64,000 nucleotides of DNA from Candidatus Aminicenantes bacterium (GCA_963770755.1 CAVYQZ010000009.1:209195-273194), one strand, 5' to 3'; shown: positions 6,567-46,440, counted from the first letter of the stretch. Numbers and translations are program-made. Notes: generated by a model not told the origin, from the letters alone.

Positions 6567-6699
6567 CAACTTGACCATGGGAGTAATTTATCCGCATAAT
6601 AAGTAATTTATATTATTTTTTTCAAAAAAACATTATCGTTTTCATTTTGGCCAGTGACAGGTCTTTTGTGACTTAAGTGAAAAATCTATTCAAAAATAG

Positions 6700-6727
6700 T
6701 TGACAGGATCTATAAATTGATTACAAT
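6700..6727 (+). promoter_or_regulatory. Sigma70-like promoter for the first TA operon: TTGACA, 16-nt spacer, TACAAT, followed by an AGGAGGA RBS
   Basis: Near-consensus -35 hexamer at 6700-6705 and -10 hexamer at 6722-6727, ~20 nt upstream of the ATG at 6748. Confidence 0.5.
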
Positions 6728-6747
6728 GTATTCAGGAGGATACGTAA

Positions 6748-6984
6748 ATGCGCGATGTCATGACAGTCCGGGTGGAACCGGAAGTTAAAACGAGACTCGA
6801 TAAACTGGCCAAAGCGACAGCCAGAACAAAATCATTCTTGATCGCGGATGCCATTCGCGAGTATATCGAGCTCAATGAATGGCAGATCGAAGCCATCCAG
6901 GAAGGCATTCGTCAGGCGGATGCCGGGAAACTGATAGCGCATGACAAGCTAAAAAAGAAGTGGGAGCGTAAACTTGCGGATTGA
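6748..6984 (+). CDS. Ribbon-helix-helix antitoxin (ParD/CopG-like)
   Basis: 78 aa; RHH-type N-terminus; overlaps the downstream toxin gene by 11 nt. Confidence 0.75.
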   Translation: MRDVMTVRVEPEVKTRLDKLAKATARTKSFLIADAIREYIELNEWQIEAIQEGIRQADAGKLIAHDKLKKKWERKLAD

Positions 6985-7267
6985 GTGGACATTGGCCGCT
7001 GACGCTGATCTTGAAAGTATCGTCGCTTATATCACTGAAGACAATCCCCGGGCGGCGGCGGGAATAGTCATGAAGATAATCCAAATCGTGGAAGATCACC
7101 TATCGCAAACTCCAGCTATGGGCCGTCCCGGGCGAGTGCCCAAAACCCGTGAACTGATCGTCCCGGATACCCCATATATCGTGGCTTATCGGATCAAGGA
7201 TAAAAACCTGGAGATTCTCAGAGTCATTCACGGCTCCCGCAGATGGCCCGGGAAATTTAAAACATAA
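6974..7267 (+). CDS. ParE/RelE-family type II toxin
   Basis: 97 aa; ParE-like (…IVAYRIKDKNLEILRVIHGSRRW); translationally coupled to the upstream antitoxin. Confidence 0.75.
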   Translation: MRIEWTLAADADLESIVAYITEDNPRAAAGIVMKIIQIVEDHLSQTPAMGRPGRVPKTRELIVPDTPYIVAYRIKDKNLEILRVIHGSRRWPGKFKT

Positions 7268-7385
7268 AAAGCAGCATGGCCGTGCAACTCTCATGGGGAT
7301 ATAAATAGAATTATTTTTGTGCCAACCCAAAATAGACTTGACAATACATATAATTGGATATATATTTATATGTGTGAAGTGCAAG

Positions 7386-7613
7386 ATGAGCCGTCCGAAA
7401 GTTATTTTCACCCTTGATCAGGCTATCATCGACGAACTCAATACCGTCTCCGCCGAACTCAAGGAAAAGAAGAGCCATATCGTGGAAAAAGCCCTGATGC
7501 TCTATTTCGATATTCTGGACATCCGGATCGCCGATAAAAGGATGAGTGACGTCAAAAAAGGTAAGTCCAAGCTGCTCCCCGCTGAAGACGTTTATAAAGA
7601 ACTCGGGCTGTGA
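7386..7613 (+). CDS. Antitoxin of the second TA pair (RHH/RelB-like)
   Basis: Small protein (MSRPKVIFTLDQAIIDELN...); its stop overlaps the toxin start (GTGA). Confidence 0.6.
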   Translation: MSRPKVIFTLDQAIIDELNTVSAELKEKKSHIVEKALMLYFDILDIRIADKRMSDVKKGKSKLLPAEDVYKELGL

Positions 7614-7879
7614 GATATAATGTTTTTTACGAAGAGAGAGCCGCAAAGGAACTGGCCAGGATAGACAGGCCCTACCAACTGTTGATCAAAAAGATATTTG
7701 AGCAGTTGGCGGCTGATTTCGAGTCCATGTCCGGGAACCTGAAGCTGCTGAAGGGAAAATACGACTTTTTCCGGCTGCAGGTGGGCAGCTACCGCGTGAT
7801 ATTCCATAAAGACGCCAAAAAGATCATGATCACCATCGTCCGCATTGGCCAGCGCCGGGAAGTCTATAAAGATTTGTAA
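7610..7879 (+). CDS. RelE/StbE-family mRNA interferase toxin
   Basis: 89 aa; the C-terminus (YRVIFHKDAKKIMITIVRIGQRREVYK) is typical of RelE. Confidence 0.75.
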   Translation: MRYNVFYEERAAKELARIDRPYQLLIKKIFEQLAADFESMSGNLKLLKGKYDFFRLQVGSYRVIFHKDAKKIMITIVRIGQRREVYKDL

Positions 7880-7911
7880 ATTTCGACAGCTAAAGTAAAT
7901 AGTTTTTTCCC

Positions 7912-8838
7912 TTATTTTTTTCTTTCTAATACATCAAATCCAGATATTACGGCGTCAGAAATAAAATCCTGCAATAAACTGGAATCTCCCGTCATTTGAA
8001 ATTTATTAAGATATTTAATGTATAAAGGTTTTTTTTCCTGCAAAATCAGCGCTGGAGGGATATTTTTTTGCAGAAGCATGATCTGAATCAGAAGTCTGCC
8101 AATTCTGCCATTTCCATCAGAAAAAGGATGGATTTGTTCAAAGCGTCCATGAATTTCAGAAACATGGGCAATTATGTCTTTGCCGGGAGCATTTACATTT
8201 TTTATTAATTCTTTCAACAAGACGGGAATTTTCAAATAATTCGCGGTTGGAACGTAGGAGCCCAATATTCTTACTCCGTGATTACGGTAGGCACCGGCAT
8301 CCTCGCGAATGCTATTCATTAAAATGGCATGCAATTTTAAAACTAATCCTTCGTTTATTTTATTTTTATCAAGAACCCAAGTAAATAAATAGCGCAGCGC
8401 GGATTGATGATTTTTGGCCTCCAATTGTTCGGTTAAGCTTCTATGCGGCGGGGAAACATTTTCGAAAAGTATTCCAGCCGTTTCGTCTTCGGTCAGGGTG
8501 CTGCCTTCAATCCGATTTGTGTTGTAAGTTAAGGATAAAACAAATCGTTTGTGAATATCAGGATTGCTTAAAATTTCTTTCACAATGCCAGGATGTTTTT
8601 GACTTTTTATGGCGACGACTTCTTTTTTGGCTTGCAGTAAAGTATCCGGAATAATCTTTATTCCGGCATATTGGGAATACAATTCATTTATGGCATCTTG
8701 CTTCTTTTTTCGCGGCAGGGATTTTTCATTAATCCAGCTATTCAGGGTTGCAAAAGATACTTCCAGTTGTCTGGATATTTTTTCCTGGGTTAGTCCGGAA
8801 ATTTGCTGGATAAGTTTTAATTTTTCTGATATTTCCAT
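7912..8838 (-). CDS. Fic/Doc family protein (AMPylase-type) with an N-terminal HTH
   Basis: Canonical Fic motif HPFSDGNGRIGR; XRE-like HTH at the N-terminus (ISGLTQEKISRQLEVSFATLNSWIN); AT-rich gene. Confidence 0.85.
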   Translation of the reverse strand: MEISEKLKLIQQISGLTQEKISRQLEVSFATLNSWINEKSLPRKKKQDAINELYSQYAGIKIIPDTLLQAKKEVVAIKSQKHPGIVKEILSNPDIHKRFVLSLTYNTNRIEGSTLTEDETAGILFENVSPPHRSLTEQLEAKNHQSALRYLFTWVLDKNKINEGLVLKLHAILMNSIREDAGAYRNHGVRILGSYVPTANYLKIPVLLKELIKNVNAPGKDIIAHVSEIHGRFEQIHPFSDGNGRIGRLLIQIMLLQKNIPPALILQEKKPLYIKYLNKFQMTGDSSLLQDFISDAVISGFDVLERKK

Positions 8839-8963
8839 AAGTCAATTTTACCTAACTTTATAAGCTATGTCAAAATCATCAAACTTTATAAAGTTACCAT
8901 TTTGTATTTTAAGGCGTAAAACAGGGTGTTGTTTGCCCAAGCGGTTTATAATATAATCGCCAA

Positions 8964-20947: not shown

Positions 20948-21781
20948 TTGCTTTATTCCGAACCGCTGTTCCGTCCGCCGGCCGAAGCCACGTCGCTGAT
21001 CGTCCAGGTCAGCGAAGGCTGCGCTTACAACCGCTGCCGGTTCTGTCCGATGTACAAGGGCAAAAAATTTCGGGTCCGCGCTCAAGAGGAGATCGATCGC
21101 CATCTGGACAATCTGAGCAGGGCGTTCGGGACCGCCCAGAACCGTGTGTTCCTGGCCGACGGCGACGCCCTGGTGCTGCCCACGGCGGATTTGCTGACCG
21201 TCATGGCGCAGGTCCGGCGCTCATTCCCGACCGTGCGCCGTTTCGGCGTTTACGGTTCGGTCTTTTCACTGGCTGACAAGACCCGCAACGATCTACTTGA
21301 ACTCAAGCAGGCCGGACTGCGCACGGTGTACCTGGGACTGGAGTCAGGCGACGAAGAGACGCTGCGACGGATGGAAAAATACATGGAAGCGCGGCGCATG
21401 GCCGAACTCTGCCGCCGCGTGGTCGCGGCCGGCCTCAACCTGTCGGTGATGGTCGTCATCGGCCTGGGCGGCCGCTCGCGCTCCCGGCTGCACGCCGAAG
21501 CCTCGGCAAGGCTGGTCAACGAGATCGGCCCCAGCCACACCTCGCTGCTGAACCTGCTGCTCGCCCACACCCCACTGGCGGAAAATCCTGATTACAATGC
21601 CTTCGGCATTGAAGACTATTTTTCCGAAACAGCGGCCTTTGTCTCGCGCATCGAATGCAGGACTATTTTTCGCGCCAACCACGCCTCCAACCCGGTGGCG
21701 CTGGAAGGGGTGCTGCCACGCGATCGCGATAGTATCCTAAGCCAGCTGGAGATGGCCTTATCTCACTATCGCGATGCGTAA
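20948..21781 (+). CDS. Radical SAM domain protein, function unknown
   Basis: CAYNRCRFC (Cx3Cx2C) cluster motif near the N-terminus. Confidence 0.75.
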   Translation: MLYSEPLFRPPAEATSLIVQVSEGCAYNRCRFCPMYKGKKFRVRAQEEIDRHLDNLSRAFGTAQNRVFLADGDALVLPTADLLTVMAQVRRSFPTVRRFGVYGSVFSLADKTRNDLLELKQAGLRTVYLGLESGDEETLRRMEKYMEARRMAELCRRVVAAGLNLSVMVVIGLGGRSRSRLHAEASARLVNEIGPSHTSLLNLLLAHTPLAENPDYNAFGIEDYFSETAAFVSRIECRTIFRANHASNPVALEGVLPRDRDSILSQLEMALSHYRDA

Positions 21782-21783
21782 CA

Positions 21784-22075
21784 TACTTTCACTATGATTT
21801 CAACTAGTCTCTAAGTTGTTGAAATCATCTAGTGAAAGTATACCATCACTTGATGTTTTCAGCGGCTTTCTATGCATGCTGAAAACATAGTGATGGTAGA
21901 CGAATCAGATCCGCCTAAGTCGGCGGATGATTTGTGCTGCCCCTCTCTTTGGAAGAGAGGGGTTGGGGTGAGTTATGTGTTCTCCAACTCATTTCCCGGG
22001 CAGGGTCTTTCCATCACTGGATGTTTTTGACGGATTGATTGTATTGTCAAAAACATAGTGCTGGTAGACAAATCA
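21784..22075. repeat. Cluster of REP/BIME-like bulged hairpin elements: hairpins at 21784-21840 (inverted orientation), 21843-21896 and 22010-22064; each of the latter two is followed by GGTAGAC(G/A)AATCAG; three short GC hairpins lie between
   Basis: Imperfect ~55-nt palindromes whose arms carry CACTNGATG on one side and CATAGTG on the other, leaving an asymmetric 2-nt bulge. Hairpins 1b and 1c differ by compensatory stem changes (CAGC/GCTG versus TGAC/GTCA). Confidence 0.8.
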
Positions 22076-22113
22076 GCTAGCGCAACTGCCGCTTGCCGTG
22101 AAATGATTGTGCA

Positions 22114-22491
22114 TTATTTACGGGCGGCGGTCCAGGTGCCCGAGACCCCGCCGGTGCTGGTAAAGGTGCCGGAAATGGTGTCCTCGCTGCTGAACGAACC
22201 GCTCAGCGTCTCGGAGCCGCCGGGAACGCTGCCGATGAGCTGGATGGTCACATTCTTTTCCGAGACGGTGTAGGAACCGCTGCCGTTGTGGCCGAGATTG
22301 TCGATATACTGGGCGGAGCCGGTTTCCACCGACCCACTACAGGTCAGGACGGCAGTGCCGTTGCCATCGCCGCTGATTGCGAAGCTGACATCCCAGGTTC
22401 CGGAAATAAAATAATCCCCACCGGCCAGGCAGCCGGAGGTGCTGCCAAGCAGCCAGGCCAACAGGCCCCCAATCAGAAATGCGTGCTTCAT
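22114..22491 (-). CDS. Small secreted Gly/Ser/Thr-rich lipoprotein
   Basis: Signal peptide with a lipobox-like STSGC; no domain match. Confidence 0.5.
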   Translation of the reverse strand: MKHAFLIGGLLAWLLGSTSGCLAGGDYFISGTWDVSFAISGDGNGTAVLTCSGSVETGSAQYIDNLGHNGSGSYTVSEKNVTIQLIGSVPGGSETLSGSFSSEDTISGTFTSTGGVSGTWTAARK

Positions 22492-22579
22492 GCCCTTTAC
22501 CTCCTCGAGTTGATTGCTTTCTTTTATATTGACAGAAATGAGTACCGGAAGTCAACCGTGCCCTTGCCGGCCATCACCT

Positions 22580-22786
22580 TTAATAATTCTCAGATACTAC
22601 CGGTTCGGCGAGAAGTTTTTTGGCGACCTCTTGAGCTTCTTCATAAGACGCTGCTTCGAATGGTTTCTCAAGGAAACGCTTAACATTCGGAGACGTACGG
22701 GCTTCATTCAGATAAGTATTGTCCGGGTACCATTCTTTCACTTGAATGTTGCCGTATTTATGCAAATATGCCCACCAAAGTTTCAT
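22580..22786 (-). CDS. Hypothetical small protein
   Basis: 68-aa ORF in an AT-rich segment; weak. Confidence 0.3.
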   Translation of the reverse strand: MKLWWAYLHKYGNIQVKEWYPDNTYLNEARTSPNVKRFLEKPFEAASYEEAQEVAKKLLAEPVVSENY

Positions 22787-22800
22787 GCTGATCCTCCTTT

Positions 22801-23220
22801 TTAGCGATTCGAGCTATTTCTCTTGTTTCTTGATATTTCCCAAAATTCCCTGGGCGTTAGAATTGCTATTGATTCGATTTTTTTCAATACCAAAAGATCC
22901 TTGTCACCAGTGATAATGAAATCGACTCCGGCGTTAACAGCCAAGCCCAATATTTTATCATCTTCACGATCACGGCATACATTTTTCTTTAATTTTTTTG
23001 CATCAGCAATCAGACAAAACTCTTTCAAGAACGATAAAATCGCCTGAATTTTATCCTGAGGCATTTTGAGTTTCTTCGAAAAGTTTTTTTCAAGTTCCCC
23101 GAGAATATGATCGCTTAAAACAATGGTATGCTGCTGCAAACAAAATTCGAAAATGGAATCGGCCAAACCATGAGTCGCGAATGCCGAAAAAATAACGTTG
23201 GTATCAAAAACAAGTTTCAT
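22801..23220 (-). CDS. PIN-domain toxin (VapC-like)
   Basis: MKLVFDTNVIFSA...D-rich PIN acidic residues; overlaps the upstream RHH gene. Confidence 0.75.
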   Translation of the reverse strand: MKLVFDTNVIFSAFATHGLADSIFEFCLQQHTIVLSDHILGELEKNFSKKLKMPQDKIQAILSFLKEFCLIADAKKLKKNVCRDREDDKILGLAVNAGVDFIITGDKDLLVLKKIESIAILTPREFWEISRNKRNSSNR

Positions 23221-23435
23221 GAAATATCTTTGTAAACATCCTCGTCAGTCAATATCCCCCGGGCTTCGGCAAAAGGCAAAACCATATTTCTGAGCTGGCG
23301 GAAGCGGTAGACGGCAATGTATTTTTGCAACGACTCCCTGACCAGATCGCTCAGTGGTTTGCCTTCTTTTTTGCTTATGGCCTTGAGATTTTTCCTTATA
23401 TCATCGGGAATTCTTATACTAATTGACTGGTTCAT
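23217..23435 (-). CDS. RHH/CopG-type antitoxin (VapB-like)
   Basis: 72 aa; RHH N-terminus (ISIRIPDDIRKNLKAISKKEGKPLSDLVRESL); 4-nt overlap with the PIN gene. Confidence 0.7.
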   Translation of the reverse strand: MNQSISIRIPDDIRKNLKAISKKEGKPLSDLVRESLQKYIAVYRFRQLRNMVLPFAEARGILTDEDVYKDIS

Positions 23436-23525
23436 GCCATGCCTCCACGTAATACATTGTAATGCGTGTTTTTTGAAATGTCAACTTCGCCAAGGTGAGG
23501 GATTGATTTATATATCCCCAAGGGT

Positions 23526-23640
23526 ACCAACATATGTTTTTGGCAATATCGGTAAGCACCAAAAACATCTAGTGTTGGTATAGCCATACTAGATGGTTTC
23601 AGCGACTAATAGACTTGCTGAAACCATAGTATGGCTATAT
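23526..23640. repeat. Two bulged hairpin elements of the same family as 21784-22075 (23526-23580 and 23584-23640)
   Basis: GCCATACTAGATGGTTTCAGC...GCTGAAACCATAGTATGGC shows the same CTAGATG/CATAG asymmetry and the same TTTCAGC/GCTGAAA inner stem as hairpin 21843-21896. Confidence 0.75.
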
Positions 23641-23648
23641 AATTATTC

Positions 23649-26378
23649 ATGCACTTCAGCACCAGATTGCCGGTCGATGACTTTAGGGAGCGGATCGAAA
23701 GCGAAATCGCCACCCACCCGGTGTTGGTCCTGACCGCCGAGACCGGCGCCGGCAAATCGACCCGCGTCCCCACCTGGCTGTGGCAGGCCGGTGTCAAGGT
23801 CCACGTCACTCAGCCGCGGCGTATCGCCGCCCGCTCGCTGTCCAACTACCTGGCCCGTGTTTGTAATGTGCGCTGGGGCCAGGAGATCGGTTTTCAGACC
23901 GGCCTGGACAGCAACCGCTCGTCGAAAACAACTCTCCTTTACCTGACCGACGGCGTGCAAATGGTCCAGGAGATCCAGGGCAAACGGGAATACGACGTGC
24001 TGATTCTGGACGAGATCCACGAATGGAACCTCAACCAGGAAGTGCTGGTCGGCCTGGTCAAAAAAAACCTGGACAGCGGCTATTACCAGCGCAGCGGCAA
24101 GCGGGTGCTGATCATGAGCGCCACCCTGAAAGCCAAGCAGATTTCGACCTTCCTGAACCACGCCCCGGTGATCACCATTCCCGGCCGCGGCTTCCCGGTC
24201 GTCTGCCAGCAGCGCCACCCCTGTTTTCTCCTGCCTGACACTGCCAACCTCCTGGAAACGGGCCATAACGTGCTGCTGTTCCAGCCCGGGAAGCAGGAAA
24301 TCGAAGAAACCATGCAAAACCTGAAGGACCTGCTGGAGCACGACAAGCAGCAGGCGGTCATCCTGCCCCTGCATTCCGAATTGTCCATCAGCGAGCAGAC
24401 CAAGGTTTTTAAAAACTATCCGCTGCCCAAAGCCATCGTGGCCACCGACATCGCCCAGACCAGCCTGACCATCGACGATATCGACGCGGTCATCGACAGC
24501 GGCATCAAAAAGGAAGTTCGACTGGTCTCGGGCATTGAGGGCCTCTATCCCACCGAAATCTCCACCTCAGAATGCCGGCAGCGCGCCGGCCGCGCCGGCC
24601 GGGTGAAAAAAGGCGTGTACATTCTATGCTCGGAGCGCGGCATGAAAGAACGCAGCGATTTCCCCGAGCCGGAAATCCGCCGCCTCAACCTGGAAAGCGT
24701 GGTACTGCGCATGTGCAAGTGGGGCCTGGCGCCGTTGGAGTTCAATTTTTTTCACCGCCCCAATCGCAGCCTGATCCTCAAGGCCATCCAGAGCCTGAAA
24801 AATTTCGGTGCCCTGAGCCCGGAAGACAAGGTTACGGCCGACGGCCGCCGGATGGCTGAACTGCCCTTGGCGGTGCGCAGCGCGCGGCTGCTGCTCGAAG
24901 CTGAAAAAGGCGGCACCCGGGTCGTCGACCGGGCCCTGAAAACCATCGCCATCTTCGAAACCCGGGGCATCGTCAGCAAGGAATTCGCGGGTGGATGCTA
25001 TTCGCGCTCGCCGTACAAGTCCGACCTGATCAATCAGCTTGACATATGGGAAAATCCTAAAGACAACGCCCGGGTCATCTCGCGCAAGAAAACGGCCCTG
25101 GCCCGGGAGATTTACCTGGAACTTAAAAAACGGCTGGCTTTGCCGGCAATCAAAGGTCCCTGGTCCGACCGGGACCAAAAGCATCTTTTCCGGGCCGTTT
25201 TATCAGCATTTTGCGACGGCGTTTATTTCAAGGGCGACGGTATTTACTGGCGCGAAAAGGAAGAAAGGCAGCTCGAACGCACATCGATTCTGAATGAAAT
25301 CAAACCGGAAATGGCCGTGGCCTTGCCTTTCGACCTGGTCATCAACCGCGAAGATCAGAAAACCGGCAACAAGGAGGAAAAATATATCCCGCTGCTGACT
25401 TTCGCCTCGGAGCTTTCGCTGAAGCAGCTTGAAGAACTCAAACCTTTCAGCTATGATAAACGGCGATCCATCGTCCTGAAGGAAGATAAGATCAGCGTCG
25501 ATGAACAGTTTTTTTTCGGCGGCAAGCTCATTAAAACCATGCCCGCCGCTCCCGATTGGACGAATCCCGACGAAAAGCATCACTTGCTGACGCTGGCCCT
25601 GCAATGGTTCGCCGACAACTTCCAGTGGCTGCCCTGCCGCGGCGAAATCGAAAAAAACCGGGCCTGGTTCAAAGAGGCGGCCGCCGTTCTGCAGGAAAAA
25701 TTGCCTCCTTTTGACCATGCCTTGCGTGAATTCCTCTATCGCCAATTGCGCCGCAGTTTGAAAATCGACGACTTGCGCTTTTTTTTCCAATTCCACCCCG
25801 CCCTGCAGCGCATCACCCTCAACCATTTGCTGCCCTACAGCTGGTTGAAAAAATTGAAGGCCGTGCGCTGGCCCGGCCGGCTGATGATCAAGGACATGGA
25901 AATCCCCCTGACCTATATCAACCAGAAGCCGTATCTGACCCTGAGTTACGAACAGTTCCATCGCGTACAGAAGGATGAAATCACCCTGCCCAGCGGCGAG
26001 CAAGCCGGATTTTTACTGCAGGGTCTGCGCTTTGAAAACTGGGCCGCGGCCGTGAGCCATTACAACGATTACCTGAAGAACGAAATTTTCTGCCGCAAGT
26101 GGCAGAATGAGAAAAAAAGCATCGAGATCAACGATATCGTCGACCTGCCGTTTCCATTGCCTTTCCAGGGCGGCAACGGCAAGGAAAACGTGCCTTTCGA
26201 GTTCTATTCGGTCCCGACCGTGGAGAACGGCCAGGTTTTCCTGGTGCACTTCCCTACCCTGGAACAGGCCAACGCCTCCTTCCTGCCCCTGGCGGCGCAA
26301 TGGCGGGAACTGAAAGCCAGGTGCAAGAAGGCCGCCCTGGACAATGTTTTCCGCGGCAAGGGCTGGACCGTCAAATGA
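23649..26378 (+). CDS. hrpB: DEAH-box ATP-dependent RNA helicase (HrpB/HrpA family)
   Basis: Motif I TAETGAGKST, motif II LILDEIHE, SAT, QRAGRAGR, and the HA2 region. Confidence 0.85.
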   Translation: MHFSTRLPVDDFRERIESEIATHPVLVLTAETGAGKSTRVPTWLWQAGVKVHVTQPRRIAARSLSNYLARVCNVRWGQEIGFQTGLDSNRSSKTTLLYLTDGVQMVQEIQGKREYDVLILDEIHEWNLNQEVLVGLVKKNLDSGYYQRSGKRVLIMSATLKAKQISTFLNHAPVITIPGRGFPVVCQQRHPCFLLPDTANLLETGHNVLLFQPGKQEIEETMQNLKDLLEHDKQQAVILPLHSELSISEQTKVFKNYPLPKAIVATDIAQTSLTIDDIDAVIDSGIKKEVRLVSGIEGLYPTEISTSECRQRAGRAGRVKKGVYILCSERGMKERSDFPEPEIRRLNLESVVLRMCKWGLAPLEFNFFHRPNRSLILKAIQSLKNFGALSPEDKVTADGRRMAELPLAVRSARLLLEAEKGGTRVVDRALKTIAIFETRGIVSKEFAGGCYSRSPYKSDLINQLDIWENPKDNARVISRKKTALAREIYLELKKRLALPAIKGPWSDRDQKHLFRAVLSAFCDGVYFKGDGIYWREKEERQLERTSILNEIKPEMAVALPFDLVINREDQKTGNKEEKYIPLLTFASELSLKQLEELKPFSYDKRRSIVLKEDKISVDEQFFFGGKLIKTMPAAPDWTNPDEKHHLLTLALQWFADNFQWLPCRGEIEKNRAWFKEAAAVLQEKLPPFDHALREFLYRQLRRSLKIDDLRFFFQFHPALQRITLNHLLPYSWLKKLKAVRWPGRLMIKDMEIPLTYINQKPYLTLSYEQFHRVQKDEITLPSGEQAGFLLQGLRFENWAAAVSHYNDYLKNEIFCRKWQNEKKSIEINDIVDLPFPLPFQGGNGKENVPFEFYSVPTVENGQVFLVHFPTLEQANASFLPLAAQWRELKARCKKAALDNVFRGKGWTVK

Positions 26379-29092: not shown

Positions 29093-31420
29093 ATGAAATG
29101 TCCACAATGCGATTCACCGAACGATGAGCTGAACCGCTCCTGCAGCCAGTGCGGGGATATTTTCGACCTCACCGATCCCGTCCAATGTTCCCCTCCTGCC
29201 GTTGGCAACCTGAACAATTTCATGCTGAGTCCGGGCGATAATTTCGGCAGCCGCTACCAGATCATCGAACAGATCGGGTCCGGCGGCATGAGCAAAGTAT
29301 TCAAGGCACTGGACAAGGAGTTGAACATCCAGGTGGTGCTCAAGATCATCGACCCCGAACTGAGCAACACTCCTGATGCGGTGGAGCGTTTCAAGAGAGA
29401 ATTGCTCCTGGCCCGGGAGATCGTACACGAGAACGTGATCCGCATCCATGATCTGGGCGCAAAAGACGGTATTCGCTACATCTCCATGAACTATGTCGAG
29501 GGTCAGAACCTCCAGGAATTGATCGGCATGGCGGGTCCACTGTCGACGGGCAAGGTGCTCGACATCATCAGCACGATCTGTCAGGCACTGGTGATCGCTC
29601 ATGGCAAGGGCATCATACACCGCGACCTGAAACCGCAGAACGTCATGATCGGCAGTAAGGGCAAGGTGACCGTTCTCGATTTCGGCATCGCCCGCTCCCT
29701 GGACCAGGTGGGCACCACCCGCACCGGTTTCATCATCGGCACCCCGGAATGCATGGCGCCGGAGCAGATCCAGGGGGAAAAGGTCGATGCCAGCACCGAC
29801 ATCTACTCGCTGGGGGTCATGATGTACCAGATGGTCACCGGTCGCGTGCCGTTCAAGGCCGACAACATGCAAGCACTGCTTTTCAAGCACCTGAATGAAT
29901 CCCCGATCCCGCCGTCCGCCATCGTGCCAACCGTGCCGCCGGCCCTGGAACGCATCATTTTAAAGTGCATGAAAAAAAAACCCGGCAAGCGTTATACTTC
30001 GGCCGAAAAACTACTCAAAGCGGTCGGGCGCTTGCTGAAAAAAAAAGACCGGCGCGAAAACCTCAGGCGCAAACTGCTCCTGCTGCGCCGTCCGCTGCGC
30101 TTCCGCCCCCTGGTTTACCTGGTCCGCTTCCTGGAGCTGGCCATGCTGCTTTTCGCCTGCGCATCCGTTTTGGGCTGGGTCGTTGACAGTCATTACCGCG
30201 GCAAACTGCTCGAACTTACCGCCGAACATCCCCTCTACTTCAAGACCCGCTTTCCCATGGACAAGGATTACCTACCGCCTGACTGGCCGGTCAGGCAGGG
30301 CGATGCCTGGAAAAAATACCGCCACGCCGCGGCAATCCAGGCCGCCCTTCCTCCGGGCGAGACAGGGCTCCTGGAACGCCGTATCGAAAACCTTCACCAT
30401 GCCGTCATCCCACCGGCCGGCATCGAGGTTGTATCCGGAGTGTTGACCGACGCCGGGAATAGGATGGGCTTGGACAACGTGCTTGCCGGCATCGCCAGCG
30501 ACACCCTGGTCCCGCAGGCGGGAGAAATCCTGCCAACGGAATTCATCGCCTTCTTCAGCCGCTGGCAGACATTGAGAGCCAGGCTGGAATTCCTGAAGGG
30601 GAACAACGAAGGCGGCATGCAGCGACTCTGCGCATTGGGCATCTTTTTGACCGATTGCGAAGCGGCTGCCGGCAGCCTGGCCGACCACGCCCATACCCTT
30701 GCCCAGTTCCCCATTTTTTGCCAGGAGACCATGCTGCTGGCGCTGGCCAGCGACATCGAGCCGGACCGAAAGCAATTGGAAAGGATCGAACCCCTGCTGC
30801 TGCTGCTCCTGAAAAAAACACATGACGGCCGTTTTTTTCAATTGGCCTACCTGGACGACCTGCAGGCGGTCCGCCGGGAGGACTTCAGCGAGAGCTGGTG
30901 GTGGGGACCCGAATATTTCTGGTTCGGCAAGTTCCGTTTCATGGCCATGTTGGAAACCCGCGATCTCGTTCTGTGGCGAACCCTGGTTGCCGAGAGCCGG
31001 GCCCGGGAAACACTGTCAGCCAAACCGCCGCGAAGGGAAATCCGCACACTGCTGGACCGTTTCCGCCGCCATGACAACCGGAAGTGGCCGCAAGTCGGCT
31101 CGGAGCGTTTCTACCGCGGGCATGATTCCCTGCGCGTTAACCGCACCCTGGTCAAGCTGGCCTTGCTGCTGGAACGTCTGCAGCGTTTCGGCATCAACAG
31201 CAAAGAGGTAGTCTCCCTGCTTGCATCCGACCTGGGAGTGAACGAGCTGACCGGGGAACCGTGGCAGATCGTCCAGACCATCGATAGAACGGTCATCCGT
31301 ATCAGCGAGCGGGTTGAATTCACGTTCCGTCCCGTCAGCTACGCGGCCGACCACGCCACCGCCACCGCCGAGCTCGAAAGGCTCGCCACGGCCATCGGGG
31401 CAACGGGCAGTCGGCCCTGA
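29093..31420 (+). CDS. Hanks-type Ser/Thr protein kinase with an N-terminal zinc ribbon, a TM segment and a large C-terminal domain of unknown function
   Basis: CPQCDS...CSQCGD zinc ribbon; kinase subdomains (GSGGMSKVFKA, HRDLKPQNV, DFGIAR, GTPECMAPE). Confidence 0.85.
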   Translation: MKCPQCDSPNDELNRSCSQCGDIFDLTDPVQCSPPAVGNLNNFMLSPGDNFGSRYQIIEQIGSGGMSKVFKALDKELNIQVVLKIIDPELSNTPDAVERFKRELLLAREIVHENVIRIHDLGAKDGIRYISMNYVEGQNLQELIGMAGPLSTGKVLDIISTICQALVIAHGKGIIHRDLKPQNVMIGSKGKVTVLDFGIARSLDQVGTTRTGFIIGTPECMAPEQIQGEKVDASTDIYSLGVMMYQMVTGRVPFKADNMQALLFKHLNESPIPPSAIVPTVPPALERIILKCMKKKPGKRYTSAEKLLKAVGRLLKKKDRRENLRRKLLLLRRPLRFRPLVYLVRFLELAMLLFACASVLGWVVDSHYRGKLLELTAEHPLYFKTRFPMDKDYLPPDWPVRQGDAWKKYRHAAAIQAALPPGETGLLERRIENLHHAVIPPAGIEVVSGVLTDAGNRMGLDNVLAGIASDTLVPQAGEILPTEFIAFFSRWQTLRARLEFLKGNNEGGMQRLCALGIFLTDCEAAAGSLADHAHTLAQFPIFCQETMLLALASDIEPDRKQLERIEPLLLLLLKKTHDGRFFQLAYLDDLQAVRREDFSESWWWGPEYFWFGKFRFMAMLETRDLVLWRTLVAESRARETLSAKPPRREIRTLLDRFRRHDNRKWPQVGSERFYRGHDSLRVNRTLVKLALLLERLQRFGINSKEVVSLLASDLGVNELTGEPWQIVQTIDRTVIRISERVEFTFRPVSYAADHATATAELERLATAIGATGSRP

Positions 31421-44641: not shown

Positions 44642-44882
44642 TTATTCTCCTTCCATAGTGCAACGATCTGAAATTCAACAAGCAGGACCGCCATCGGTTT
44701 GAAAGGCGATTACAGGCCGCTGAAACGGTTCAAAAAAGCGACCACGACGCTGTGTCGGCTGTGGGTCATCATGGATCCATTGTACCCCGGGAGGAAAAAG
44801 TTGTAAACATCCGGCCCGCGAGCTTTCTGCGTTGACGGCAATGACGAAATATAATACAATAGCCCTTTCCTTCAACCCGCGG

Positions 44883-44956
44883 GCCGAAGTAGCTCAGTTG
44901 GTAGAGCAATTGATTCGTAATCAATAGGTCGGGAGTTCAAATCTCCCCTTCGGCTT
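44883..44956 (+). tRNA. tRNA-Thr (anticodon CGU)
   Basis: Cloverleaf: acceptor GCCGAAG/CTTCGGC, D-arm GCTCAGTTGGTAGAGC, anticodon loop TTCGTAA, T-arm GGGAGTTCAAATCTCCC; CCA not encoded. Confidence 0.85.
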
Positions 44957-45027
44957 CTTCCCATCAGGGTTTACCTCAAGTGTACTTCAACTATTCAGAT
45001 GACAATCCCCTATTTCACAGGATTTCT

Positions 45028-45588
45028 TTATTCGTCAACAGTCAGGTTCCCAGCCCTGCAACCTCTCCTCGGTAAAAGACCTCGCTCCAGCAAGACATGC
45101 GCAATGGCGTCTCGATAAGCCGAATATAGTTTATCAGGTAGGTCAATATAAAGTTTGTCAAGTCCTTTTCCATCCCCCTTGAAGCCCTTTCGTATCTCTT
45201 CATCGGATAAATCTTTCAGGGCAACTCGCATCTCGGCTAAGTTTTTTTCATTGTAAGGGGACTGAATATTTTTTAGGGCATCCTCCCGAGAGAAATGAAA
45301 TATTCTGTCTTTCTGAGATAATGCAAACTCTAAAACCTTGCGGATACCTGCATCTTCATAAGAAATTTGCAACTCTCGATGAATCGCGCCAAGAAGAAAA
45401 GGAGCCACTGTGCAAATCAACCGTGTTTCTTTTGTCCAATCGTTTACGACCGTGATGAGAACATAGTTTGGTGCAGTCGAATTATTTTCAATGGCTCTCA
45501 CATAGAGTTCGTAAGCATCGGGTTCAGCAGCATTCGCATATACTGACATCAGAATCAGAATCCCAATGCTGATTCTTATTCTATTCAT
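45028..45588 (-). CDS. Hypothetical secreted protein (AT-rich island)
   Basis: Signal peptide (MNRIRISIGILILMSVYANA) preceded by a GGAGG RBS; no domain recognised. Confidence 0.5.
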   Translation of the reverse strand: MNRIRISIGILILMSVYANAAEPDAYELYVRAIENNSTAPNYVLITVVNDWTKETRLICTVAPFLLGAIHRELQISYEDAGIRKVLEFALSQKDRIFHFSREDALKNIQSPYNEKNLAEMRVALKDLSDEEIRKGFKGDGKGLDKLYIDLPDKLYSAYRDAIAHVLLERGLLPRRGCRAGNLTVDE

Positions 45589-45725
45589 TTTATTCCTCCA
45601 CCCATTCCAATTCATCAAGCAGAACAAATTCACCGCCGCAATCACACTTATAATTTTTATCTCTATTTTTTTCTTTCGCACGTTTCAAACATATCATAAC
45701 CTCTGGTCCGGAAAAAATACGACGT

Positions 45726-45992
45726 TTAAAAAACAATTTGTCCTGCATAAATCACAAAAAATGTAAGCAATCCAAACCAAAAGGCTTCCAACAATCCATA
45801 TTCTAAAAATGCCCCCCAAGTTATTGGGTCAAACCAAGCAATAGCAATTTTACTAAAACCAATTTTTATTTTAATAGCCCCAACAATAAAAATCAAGCCA
45901 GCAAAAATGAATGGCCGCCAAATTTTCTTGTAAGCATTCTTTTTACTTTGTCTAATTTTCTTTACTTCTTCTTCATTCTTGTATTTCCACAT
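45726..45992 (-). CDS. Small hypothetical membrane protein
   Basis: 88 aa with two predicted TM helices. Confidence 0.35.
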   Translation of the reverse strand: MWKYKNEEEVKKIRQSKKNAYKKIWRPFIFAGLIFIVGAIKIKIGFSKIAIAWFDPITWGAFLEYGLLEAFWFGLLTFFVIYAGQIVF

Positions 45993-46168
45993 ACTTCCCC
46001 CACTTATGGAAAATCACCAACCACAATCATTCTGAGGTTCTTGCCCTGAGATGTCAAACTTGGCTGCAATTGAAGCAGGTGATTACTGTAGCGGAAAGAG
46101 GTCGAAAAACGTCGTTTATACCATTGAAAGCATGAACTAATAAGGGTTTCCGTTGTTTAGTCTATTTG

Positions 46169-46440
46169 TTCGTAATCAATAGGTCGGGATATTGCCACTT
46201 TGATTTTTCGAGGACTAGGATTTCTGGAAAATCAACTAGTGGCAATATGGCACTCTGATTTTCAAAGGATTTTTAGATCTGGAAAATCAGCTAGTGCCAA
46301 TATACCATCACTGGATGCGTTTCCAGCTTTCCGAACTTGGAAACGCATAGTGATGGTAACACTAGATGCGTTTCTGATTTACCGGCTGTGAAACGCATAG
46401 TGTTGCTATTCAAATCTCCCCTTCGGCTTCTCTTTCCCAC
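46169..46440 (+). repeat. Direct repeat of the 3' portion of tRNA-Thr (46169-46189 and 46409-46440), interrupted by four bulged hairpin elements (46190-46408) of the 21784/23526 family
   Basis: ttcgtaatcaataggtcggga and ttcaaatctccccttcggcttc match the tRNA at 44883-44956. Between them lie four ~50-nt palindromes of the same bulged-hairpin family; the two most distal carry CACTNGATG…CATAGTG-type arms. Confidence 0.8.

Follow-up and report, generated by a model that had tools for sequence, protein, structure and literature searches.

A dispersed family of bulged hairpins is described here from a 64,000-nucleotide (nt) stretch of DNA of a Candidatus Aminicenantes bacterium (GCA_963770755.1, CAVYQZ010000009.1:209195-273194). 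This whole stretch is referred to below as the window. The family, first noticed in the region 21784-22075, is best explained, with a probability of about one half, as a set of small non-autonomous mobile DNA elements that is specific to a Candidatus Aminicenantes lineage and moves as single-stranded DNA. Such elements would be of the same kind as REP (repetitive extragenic palindromic) sequences and their composites, the bacterial interspersed mosaic elements (BIMEs) and the REP doublets forming hairpins (REPINs). The units have sharp ends, are present or absent at orthologous sites, and have entered hairpin loops or 5′ stem-loop junctions in one orientation without target duplication; their stems and a one-sided bulge are kept, and their loops drift. 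Duplication-free loop insertion in one orientation, together with a bulge that marks one strand, suggests movement of folded single-stranded DNA by an HUH/Y1 enzyme. To our knowledge, the Aminicenantes (OP8) have no cultured member.

Structure, types and distribution of the hairpin family

A plus-strand radical-SAM gene (20948-21781) and a small convergent open reading frame (ORF) on the minus strand (22114-22491) face each other with their stop codons across the region 21784-22075. This region contains three hairpins, H1 (21784-21840, minus), H2 (21843-21896, plus) and H3 (22010-22064, plus), of which the first is inverted relative to the other two. The preliminary description of this region had given these hairpins, their coordinates, their core, a 2-nt bulge on one arm and the inversion of the first copy, and all of these were found as claimed. 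The compensating changes that it had seen between the inner stems of H2 and H3 (ATGTTTTCAGC/GCTGAAAACAT versus ATGTTTTTGAC/GTCAAAAACAT) were likewise confirmed, and amount to three per arm. The sequence GGTAGAC(G/A)AATCAG follows both H2 and H3.

With a covariance model made from 54 copies and applied unfiltered, the number of bulged hairpins of about 57 nt in the window comes to exactly nine, in agreement with the earlier count. Their E-values range from 1e-6 to 1e-19, their orientation is resolved by 20-40 bits, and they are grouped in three clusters (Table 1). All nine are built alike: the outer stem (...CACT) leads to a 2-nt bulge (NG) on the 5′ arm, next comes the inner stem (NTG...CAN), and the outer stem then returns (AGTG...). 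In each module of 57-60 nt the core at the bulge is conserved, with one arm reading CACT-NG-ATG and the opposite arm CAT-AGTG. The pattern CACTNNATG...CATAGTG has five exact matches in the window, compared with 0.00 expected from 100 shuffles. Folded with DNA parameters, each copy shows both stems, the 2-nt 5′-arm bulge and a loop of 11-20 nt; the z-scores lie between -4.8 and -10.4, and none of 200 shuffles folds as well. The hairpins are real and non-random, and the finding is statistically solid.

Seven discrete types, A to G, can be told apart among the copies, each combining its outer-stem triplet with a particular inner stem: type A (outer TTT, inner ATGATTTCAAC), type B (CAT, ATGTTTTCAGC), type C (GTCA, ATGGTTTCAGC), type D (CCAA, ATGTTTTTGGC), type E (GTCT, with the inner stem of A), type F (TTGG, CTGATTTTCC) and type G (GCAA, ATGCGTTTCC). 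About one copy in ten is a hybrid whose outer and inner modules come from different types, for example H3 (B outside, D inside) or the copy at 46303-46358 (B outside, G inside), and the stem modules are found in new combinations on either side of the conserved core. Abutting copies obey a strict rule: all 29 such pairs among 87 tabulated copies are minus-then-plus, or head-to-head, and none is tail-to-tail, with the partnerships fixed as A-B, D-C and G-F. The BIME-like alternation proposed earlier from the inverted first hairpin does not hold in general; the arrangement is instead a strict head-to-head heterodimer. The dimer folds as two abutting hairpins and not as one long one, its bulges adjoin the junction (GTATAC or GTATAG), and on either strand it shows one hairpin in the form with the bulge on the 5′ arm. 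Heterotypic pairing would keep the two inner arms from annealing to each other as a single long and unstable palindrome.

The stems covary well beyond chance, as the preliminary description had proposed. In 54 aligned copies, picked by a pattern that demands core complementarity, standard pairs make up 95.8% of the stem cells versus 77.8% in shuffles, changes on both sides occur in 14 of the 21 stem pairs, and the covariation score is 0.464, versus 0.137 in shuffles and at most 0.093 with the partners slid by 1-3 columns. Much of this covariation is held by the outer-stem pairs (columns 2-7 with 59-64), which lie outside that selection. The invariant positions are CACT/AGTG, the bulge G, TG/CA and TT/AA. 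Of 1133 cells, 7 are G-T pairs and 10 are A-C mismatches, so that G-T is not the more frequent of the two. In 82 of 83 copies the 2-nt bulge is confined to the 5′ arm; it is composed of AG (53), GG (10), TG (8), AA (6) or CG (3). The sole exception, at position 379-440 of locus L039 (related loci are designated here by L numbers), is a symmetric palindrome with a 2-nt insert on both arms (CACT-AG-ATG ... CAT-CT-AGTG) and scores nearly equally on both strands. Within a type, the stems are 85-93% identical and the loops 42-52%, in genomes with genes about 80% identical. The A loop of L043 is the reverse complement of other A loops (compared with L029).

Our reading of these features is that the constraint acts on the Watson-Crick DNA palindrome and its asymmetry rather than on one RNA strand. 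The lack of a G-T excess and the presence of both orientations in every dimer argue against selection on one transcribed RNA strand, and selection or templated correction of a DNA palindrome fits better than the small RNA that the preliminary description had offered as one option. Arm-to-arm templated correction could yield apparently compensatory changes without selection on structure, but it would also erase the bulge. Since the bulge is retained nevertheless, it is probably required.

A pattern scan combined with the covariance model yields 83 distinct copies in 37 sources, all of them Candidatus Aminicenantes/Acidobacteria metagenome-assembled genomes (MAGs) or related metagenome contigs. 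Carriers among the MAGs are JAPKZM01, JBAXOR01, JAFGSF01, CAVSZS01, DCVB01, JALHTJ01 and JBGSPO01, and the source metagenomes include, for example, Lake Pavin sediment, Ga0209540. The earlier proposal of a new family is borne out, and the family is dispersed and extragenic: the covariance model finds further copies in related genomes, and each of the 45 clusters lies between genes, whether these are convergent, tandem or divergent. In Rfam, only the tRNA reaches the gathering score, and the cluster yields nothing but sub-threshold miRNA/snoRNA noise. A literature search found no description of this hairpin family or of Aminicenantes repeat content. The pattern scan of species-representative genomes returned 102 stretches, about 65 of which are chance matches without a stem; those with complementary variable positions come without exception from Candidatus Aminicenantes or Acidobacteria MAGs, including two labelled Chrysiogenales. 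None of the 10 pattern matches in viral contigs (IMG/VR) was confirmed by the covariance model. The family is lineage-specific and patchy, since about 80 kb of related lineages sharing the radical-SAM gene hold no copy. The genes beside the clusters are unrelated housekeeping genes: in a Pfam scan of 78 flanking ORFs, the 25 most frequent families were of diverse housekeeping kinds, and an all-against-all BLAST of 1056 ORFs from hairpin loci returned only syntenic orthologues and no recurrent neighbouring protein.

Around its tRNA-Thr gene, the window has about 85% identity with a contig from the Aminicenantes MAG JAPKZM, and over 20 kb it has about 80% identity with L103, a 261-kb metagenome contig. 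One MAG labelled 'Chrysiogenales bacterium ELA510' (JBAXOR01; L037, L010 and other loci) is 84-87% identical over 4.5 kb to the Aminicenantes MAG JAPKZM01 (L007) and carries the same hairpin types, for which reasons its taxonomic label is probably wrong. A cyanobacterial affinity, an idea raised by GCGATCGC motifs, was ruled out, as the window has only four of these motifs and its relatives are Aminicenantes.

A second repeat, named R, is a separate bulged hairpin (GAC-AA-ATCAG-ATCCGCC-loop-GGCGGAT-GATTTGT-GCTGCC; 3′ arm GGCGGAT-GATTTGTGCTGCC). Its design follows that of the main family: two stems, outer and inner, are separated by a 2-nt bulge on the 5′ arm, and the loop has 6 nt. R occurs alone in at least seven places, as ...GACAGACAAATCA..., and the copy at 21899-21945 is orthologous to a solo R directly after the stop codon in L103 and L106. 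The sequence GGTAGAC(G/A)AATCAG mentioned above is the junction of the 3′ end of the B hairpin (...AGTGATGGTA) with the start of R. In the preliminary description this GTAG-containing tail had been likened to a REP head; GGTAGAC, however, stands 3′ of B-type copies only. As the tail is the 5′ end of R and the other types have no GTAG after them, the GTAG motif is not a head of this hairpin family. A separate observation on R comes from L103 10763-11060, where three tandem copies of the last 47 nt or so of the radical-SAM gene alternate with a degenerate B hairpin and R elements. An 8-mer within that gene has the same sequence as the 3′ end of R, GTGCTGCC, and this suggests slippage or unequal exchange between R and the gene end. 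A further hairpin at 21940-21962 (CCCCTCTCTT...AAGAGAGGGG) was ruled out as a dispersed repeat: it is local orthologous sequence, common only to L109.

Ends, empty sites and nested insertions

The dimer is 113-117 nt long, with the ends TAC...xTA. In an alignment of nine A-B and 17 D-C dimers with 80-90 nt of flanking sequence, similarity starts and stops sharply at TAC-nnn-CACT ... AGTG-nnn-(G/C)TA. Dimers are present or absent at orthologous sites. An example is the site after the radical-SAM gene: in the window the stop codon is followed by CA, the A-B dimer and GACGAATCAG, and in L103 and L106 the stop codon is followed by CAGACCGATCAG, without any duplication.

Several copies lie inside other structured sequences. 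A D-C dimer is located 2 nt inside the loop of a B hairpin in L010, and D-C dimers are found within the inner stem or loop of R elements in L032, L007 and L089; all four share one orientation relative to the host hairpin. An E monomer sits inside an R loop (L103 18150-18260) and half a C hairpin inside an E loop (L103 9840-9930). The cluster at 46190-46406 and its L101 orthologue, both with an F-G dimer, split a partial tRNA-Thr copy at the boundary between T-stem and T-loop. No target duplication was found in the seven insertions for which the pre-insertion sequence is known, namely those in the B loop, the three R elements, the tRNA T-arm and the R loop with the E monomer, and that seen between the window and L103; the half C hairpin in the E loop has none either.

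Flanking direct repeats were absent from 19 of 27 dimers, and those of the remainder were 4, 5 or 7 nt long. Six A-B copies are flanked by GACA...GACA, which is probably one ancestral event, because the composite A-B-R is itself repeated. Direct repeats of 7 nt (L036) and 5 nt (L037) flank two D-C copies, where 0.08 are expected. Solo R elements carry GACAGACA, which is either the native target or a footprint.

As for the interrupted tRNA copy, the last 44 nt of the tRNA-Thr gene (44882-44957) are repeated, minus one G, 1.2 kb downstream. The two repeats bracket a segment (44958-46168) with 39% G+C and two minus-strand ORFs without Pfam matches. In L101 the same interrupted tRNA-Thr fragment is present, with only 414 nt between the repeats. 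The segment looks like the remnant of a tRNA-integrated element that has no integrase left.

Possible origins and comparison with known systems

If the hairpins are mobile DNA, the unit would move as folded single-stranded DNA, with cleavage and joining done in trans by a structure-specific enzyme whose single gene lies elsewhere in the genome. Such an enzyme would most likely be an HUH/Y1 protein of the type of the REP-associated tyrosine transposases (RAYTs) or of the IS200 insertion sequences, and it may read the bulge to tell the strands apart. Published REP and BIME systems have long bulged hairpins (1-3 nt bulge), inverted pairs and several subtypes per genome (PMC6006769; PMC2817692; PMC3337134); inverted pairs are their basic unit, and no transposase is adjacent (PMC6006769, PMC2817692, PMC3733652, PMC3337134). 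With the systems served by RAYTs (TnpA-REP; E. coli Y/Z1/Z2, Pseudomonas), the present family shares extragenic palindromes at high density, several subtypes per genome and the inverted two-copy unit. It also shares their lineage specificity, vertical persistence, lack of target duplication and lack of an adjacent transposase, as well as the two stems joined by a short bulge, which here measures 2 nt.

Several observations weigh against this reading. The hallmark of REP elements is the tetranucleotide GTAG/GTGG (or CGTC), placed 0-2 nt to the 5′ side of the foot of the hairpin (PMC6006769, PMC3733652), whereas the foot is here (A)TAC-nnn in all types. The stems are A+T-rich (25-50% G+C versus at least 50%), the loops are of 11-20 nt versus 2-5 nt and the modules of 57-60 nt versus 20-40 nt. 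Unlike in REPINs, the pair is always heterotypic, has no spacer and folds as two hairpins rather than as one long hairpin. No Pfam match to a transposase, Y1/HUH, TnpB or integrase was obtained in 50 scanned window ORFs, which include all cluster-adjacent ones and leave out about a dozen larger ORFs. The same enzyme classes are missing from the ORFs bracketed by hairpins and, for the genes beside the 45 clusters, from the 25 most frequent Pfam families, behind which singletons could be hidden. Nothing credible resembling a RAYT or an IS200 TnpA came from 423 kb that take in related DNA and the window in all six frames (tblastn with approximate probes, and an HUH...Y motif search), nor did a REPtron, a cognate RAYT flanked by the same REPs; the probes are weak, and a single-copy gene is easily missed in a sample of this size. 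No fixed motif is seen at the insertion target, just a purine^pyrimidine tendency, and the GACA flanks and the 5- and 7-nt repeats of D-C copies could be target duplications. In addition, old copies have strongly conserved stems, which points to selection at the host level or to continual correction, and simple selfish transposition does not account for this.

From the REP/BIME likeness put forward in the preliminary description, a mobile DNA element as the best reading and the inverted neighbours are kept. A GTAG head, a G+C-rich stem and a short loop, as in canonical REPs, are absent. Because the defining REP marks are lacking, the hairpins are filed as a REP/BIME-like variant in their working and not as a member of the RAYT-REP families.

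Other Y1 systems offer partial likenesses. The ends of IS200/IS605 elements and their miniature (MITE) derivatives, the palindrome-associated transposable elements (PATEs), share with the family imperfect hairpins, an extrahelical mark of the active strand, the absence of target duplication, seen here in the seven insertions of known target, and implied single-stranded targets. The end hairpins of IS200/IS605 are, however, direct, whereas those described here are always inverted; these elements insert after a fixed tetra- or pentanucleotide, and no relative of TnpA or TnpB was seen here. Both contrasts of layout and target belong with the points against the preferred explanation. Class 3 TnpA-Y1 'REPtron-like' systems of Acidobacteria and Planctomycetes include about 600 atypical hairpins in Solibacter usitatus (PMC6006769). 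Compared by description only, they share with the family atypical high-copy structures in the same phylum-level group, and R carries CAGA, which fits CnGA, directly 5′ of its inner hairpin. They differ in that TnGA stands here at the bulge, not CnGA at the foot, and no class 3 gene was found in the DNA examined.

Movement as double-stranded DNA by a DDE transposase has also to be weighed. The units would then be miniature inverted-repeat transposable elements (MITEs), with the distal dimer arms (TAC-nnn-CACTATG-n-TTT...) acting as terminal inverted repeats of about 21 bp and the hairpins as a by-product. The distal arms do agree at about 15 of 21 positions, the GACA on both sides of A-B dimers and the GACAGACA of solo R are as a 4-bp duplication and an excision footprint would leave them, and the flanking repeats in L036 and L037 exceed expectation. 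Such an origin is nonetheless unlikely: none of the seven insertions of known pre-insertion sequence made a duplication, the apparent repeat lengths of 4, 5, 7 and 0 are not fixed, with most dimers (19/27) having no flanking repeat, and no related transposase gene was seen beside the clusters or in the 423 kb. The internal arms and the one-sided bulge (82/83) are kept, although recognition of terminal repeats would not need them. Under selection mainly at the RNA level, the hairpins would stabilise mRNA 3′ ends or offer processing sites, or would function as terminators, 5′ leaders or small RNAs, with the head-to-head pairing serving to make them work in either direction of transcription. This is consistent with the kept structure and stem sequence beside drifting loops, the start of the first cluster 2 nt past a stop codon, the C hairpin retained directly upstream of the helicase start in three genomes and the terminator-like R element. 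We consider it improbable, given that G-U pairs show no excess over A-C and 95.8% of the cells are standard pairs, that no U-tract follows the hairpins, that convergent, tandem and divergent regions hold clusters alike and that Rfam has no match. Moreover, nested insertions, sharp ends and presence/absence polymorphism are properties of DNA elements.

The hairpins might otherwise be folded single-strand sites of a tyrosine recombinase, like integron attC or a folded phage attP, and serve as landing pads for small cassettes such as toxin-antitoxin pairs. As in attC, they are folded single-strand sites of about 60 nt defined by structure beyond sequence, with two helices, a one-sided bulge that would choose the strand and an association with small cassettes. 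Hybrids with swapped tips (outer B with inner D or G; the inner stem common to A and E) fit exchange at the core, and all five gene-content differences described below abut elements, three of them being PIN toxin-antitoxin cassettes. An attC site, however, has an R″/R′ consensus (RYYYAAC/GTTRRRY boxes), which is absent here, the ends being ATAC.../...GTAT; the conserved bases are here central (CACT/AGTG) and not terminal. The copies are dispersed in both orientations and abut in inverted form; there is no same-orientation array separated by ORFs, no hairpin at a fixed cassette end, and no IntI or other integrase among the 50 scanned window ORFs or beside the clusters. The PIN enrichment is weak (3/45 clusters), and hairpins and cassettes may just accumulate in the same permissive intergenic spots, so that recombinase sites of this sort are a quite doubtful explanation. 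A low probability is also given to an undescribed structure-specific system of single-stranded DNA insertion or recombination, which would recognise the bulge core, use hairpin loops as targets (terminators, tRNA T-arms, repeats) and create cassette hot spots, for example for PIN toxin-antitoxin pairs; its function would be attC-like, without the features of integrons or RAYTs. CsrA-type GGA loops, type III toxin-antitoxin repeats, CRISPR and telomere-resolvase sites were dropped, as the features of the sequence do not fit them.

Under the preferred explanation of a REP/BIME-like mobile element, the family extends the REP/BIME/REPIN concept outside the GTAG/CGTC super-families and short G+C-rich hairpins, and also by its strict heterotypic head-to-head pairing. 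The nested copies are unusually clear natural evidence of hairpin-loop insertion without target duplication. The covariance model can serve as a marker for this lineage in metagenomes, the repeats may explain assembly breaks at these sites, and the folded core CACT-NG-ATG/CAT-AGTG provides a concrete bait for the moving enzyme. The interest of the family would rise if the partner enzyme were not a RAYT, or if its link with cassette hot spots, described below, were causal, in which case it would point to a new route of gene gain and loss.

Features of the window and neighbouring genes

Wherever the window and its relatives differ in gene content by more than 0.5 kb, which is the case five times, the difference borders on these elements (Table 1). 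Three of the five are PIN toxin-antitoxin cassettes, located at 22801-23435 in the window, at 17521-18097 in L103 and at 2250-2957 in L007, where hairpins stand on both sides. The hairpins may either cause such gene turnover or merely share permissive sites with it.

Table 1. Hairpins, R elements, tRNA fragments and gene-content differences, with the bounds returned by the covariance model
Feature	Position	Strand	Model bounds	Remarks
First cluster	21784-22066		21783-21899 plus 22008-22067	
A-B dimer unit	21784-21898			ends TAC...GTA
H1, type A hairpin	21784-21840	-		starts 2 nt past stop codon of radical-SAM gene (20948-21781); outer TAC-TTT-CACT, inner ATGATTTCAAC; left half of A-B dimer; 72.5 bits, z -7.3
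H2, type B hairpin	21841-21898	+		outer CAT, inner ATGTTTTCAGC; right half of A-B dimer; 71.5 bits, z -9.7
R element	21899-21945	+		outer ACGAATCA/TGATTTGT, 2-nt 5′-arm bulge, inner TCCGCC/GGCGGA, 6-nt loop, end GTGCTGCC
H3, solo hybrid hairpin	22010-22066	+		outer stem of type B with one mismatch, inner stem of type D (ATGTTTTTGAC); 56.8 bits
Degenerate R-like tail (GACAAATCAG...GATTGTGC)	22067-22112	+		adjoins stop of convergent ORF 22114-22491; read from the sequence directly
Cluster before helicase gene	23525-23637		23524-23638	
H8, type D hairpin	23525-23580	-	23524-23581	1-nt deletion in one CACT; left half of D-C dimer; 53.4 bits
H9, type C hairpin	23581-23637	+	23580-23638	ends 11 nt before helicase ATG (23649); compensatory TACT/AGTA variant, as in L103 orthologue; right half of D-C dimer; 71.1 bits
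Partial second tRNA-Thr copy, first half (TTCGTAATCAATAGGTCGGGA)	46169-46189	+		insertion target of the cluster that follows
Cluster in tRNA-Thr copy	46190-46406		46189-46402	
F-like hairpin	46190-46247	-	46189-46248	outer TTGC/GCAA, inner TTGATTTT; 59 bits
Type F hairpin	46248-46302	-	46249-46298	orthologue is L101 1086-1145
Hybrid hairpin	46303-46358	+	46302-46359	type B outer stem, type G inner stem (ATGCGTTTCCA); 60.5 bits
Type G hairpin	46359-46406	+	46360-46402	orthologue is L101 1031-1087; 5′ outer arm partly displaced by neighbouring copy
Interrupted tRNA-Thr fragment, second half (TTCAAATCTCCCCTTCGGCTTC)	46409-46430	+		
Difference 1	22068-23500			four-gene segment including RHH-PIN pair; absent in L109
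Difference 2				radical-SAM/SPASM gene, in L103 only
Difference 3				L103 has an AbrB-PIN pair in place of the protein kinase of the window
Difference 4				different cargo in L007 and L037
Difference 5	44958-46168			beside tRNA-Thr

In L109 (1470-1560), the radical-SAM gene, an R-like hairpin, a D-C dimer and the helicase start are contiguous. The corresponding insert of the window, bracketed by H3 and the D-C dimer, carries the ORFs 22114-22491 and 22580-22786, the PIN gene (22801-23220) and the RHH gene (23217-23435). L103 represents an intermediate state at this place, without the toxin-antitoxin pair. Elsewhere in L103 (17521-18260), the AbrB-PIN pair and two R elements replace the 775-amino-acid (aa) Ser/Thr kinase gene of the window (29093-31420), and an E-type hairpin splits the loop of the second of these R elements. 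The ORFs that have hairpins on both sides encode a PIN toxin, a UPF0047 protein and unknowns, and no transposase. Cassettes of the toxin type are not always found beside the repeats, since a stretch at 6600-8900 (37-45% G+C) with a ParE toxin gene (6974-7267) and a Fic/DOC gene (7912-8838) has no hairpins nearby.

The repeats may have secondary effects on their neighbours, judging from sequence motifs. A sigma-70 promoter and simple terminator scan of the clusters flagged R as terminator-like and gave one weak promoter-like match across the H1/H2 junction (21819-21846, 9/12); termination by the R element is possible. In three genomes, the end of the C hairpin (...GGCTA) is followed by TATAAT, 5 nt and the helicase ATG (window 23610-23651; L103 12020-12050, TGGTATAAT; L109 1650-1688), and TTGCTG stands 17 nt upstream, within the C hairpin. 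The repeat may in part supply a promoter for a leaderless helicase mRNA. Farther downstream in the window, the segment 48800-53200 (35-38% G+C) contains five minus-strand ORFs of 381, 360, 252, 168 and 166 aa without a Pfam match, and it is probably a horizontally acquired island.

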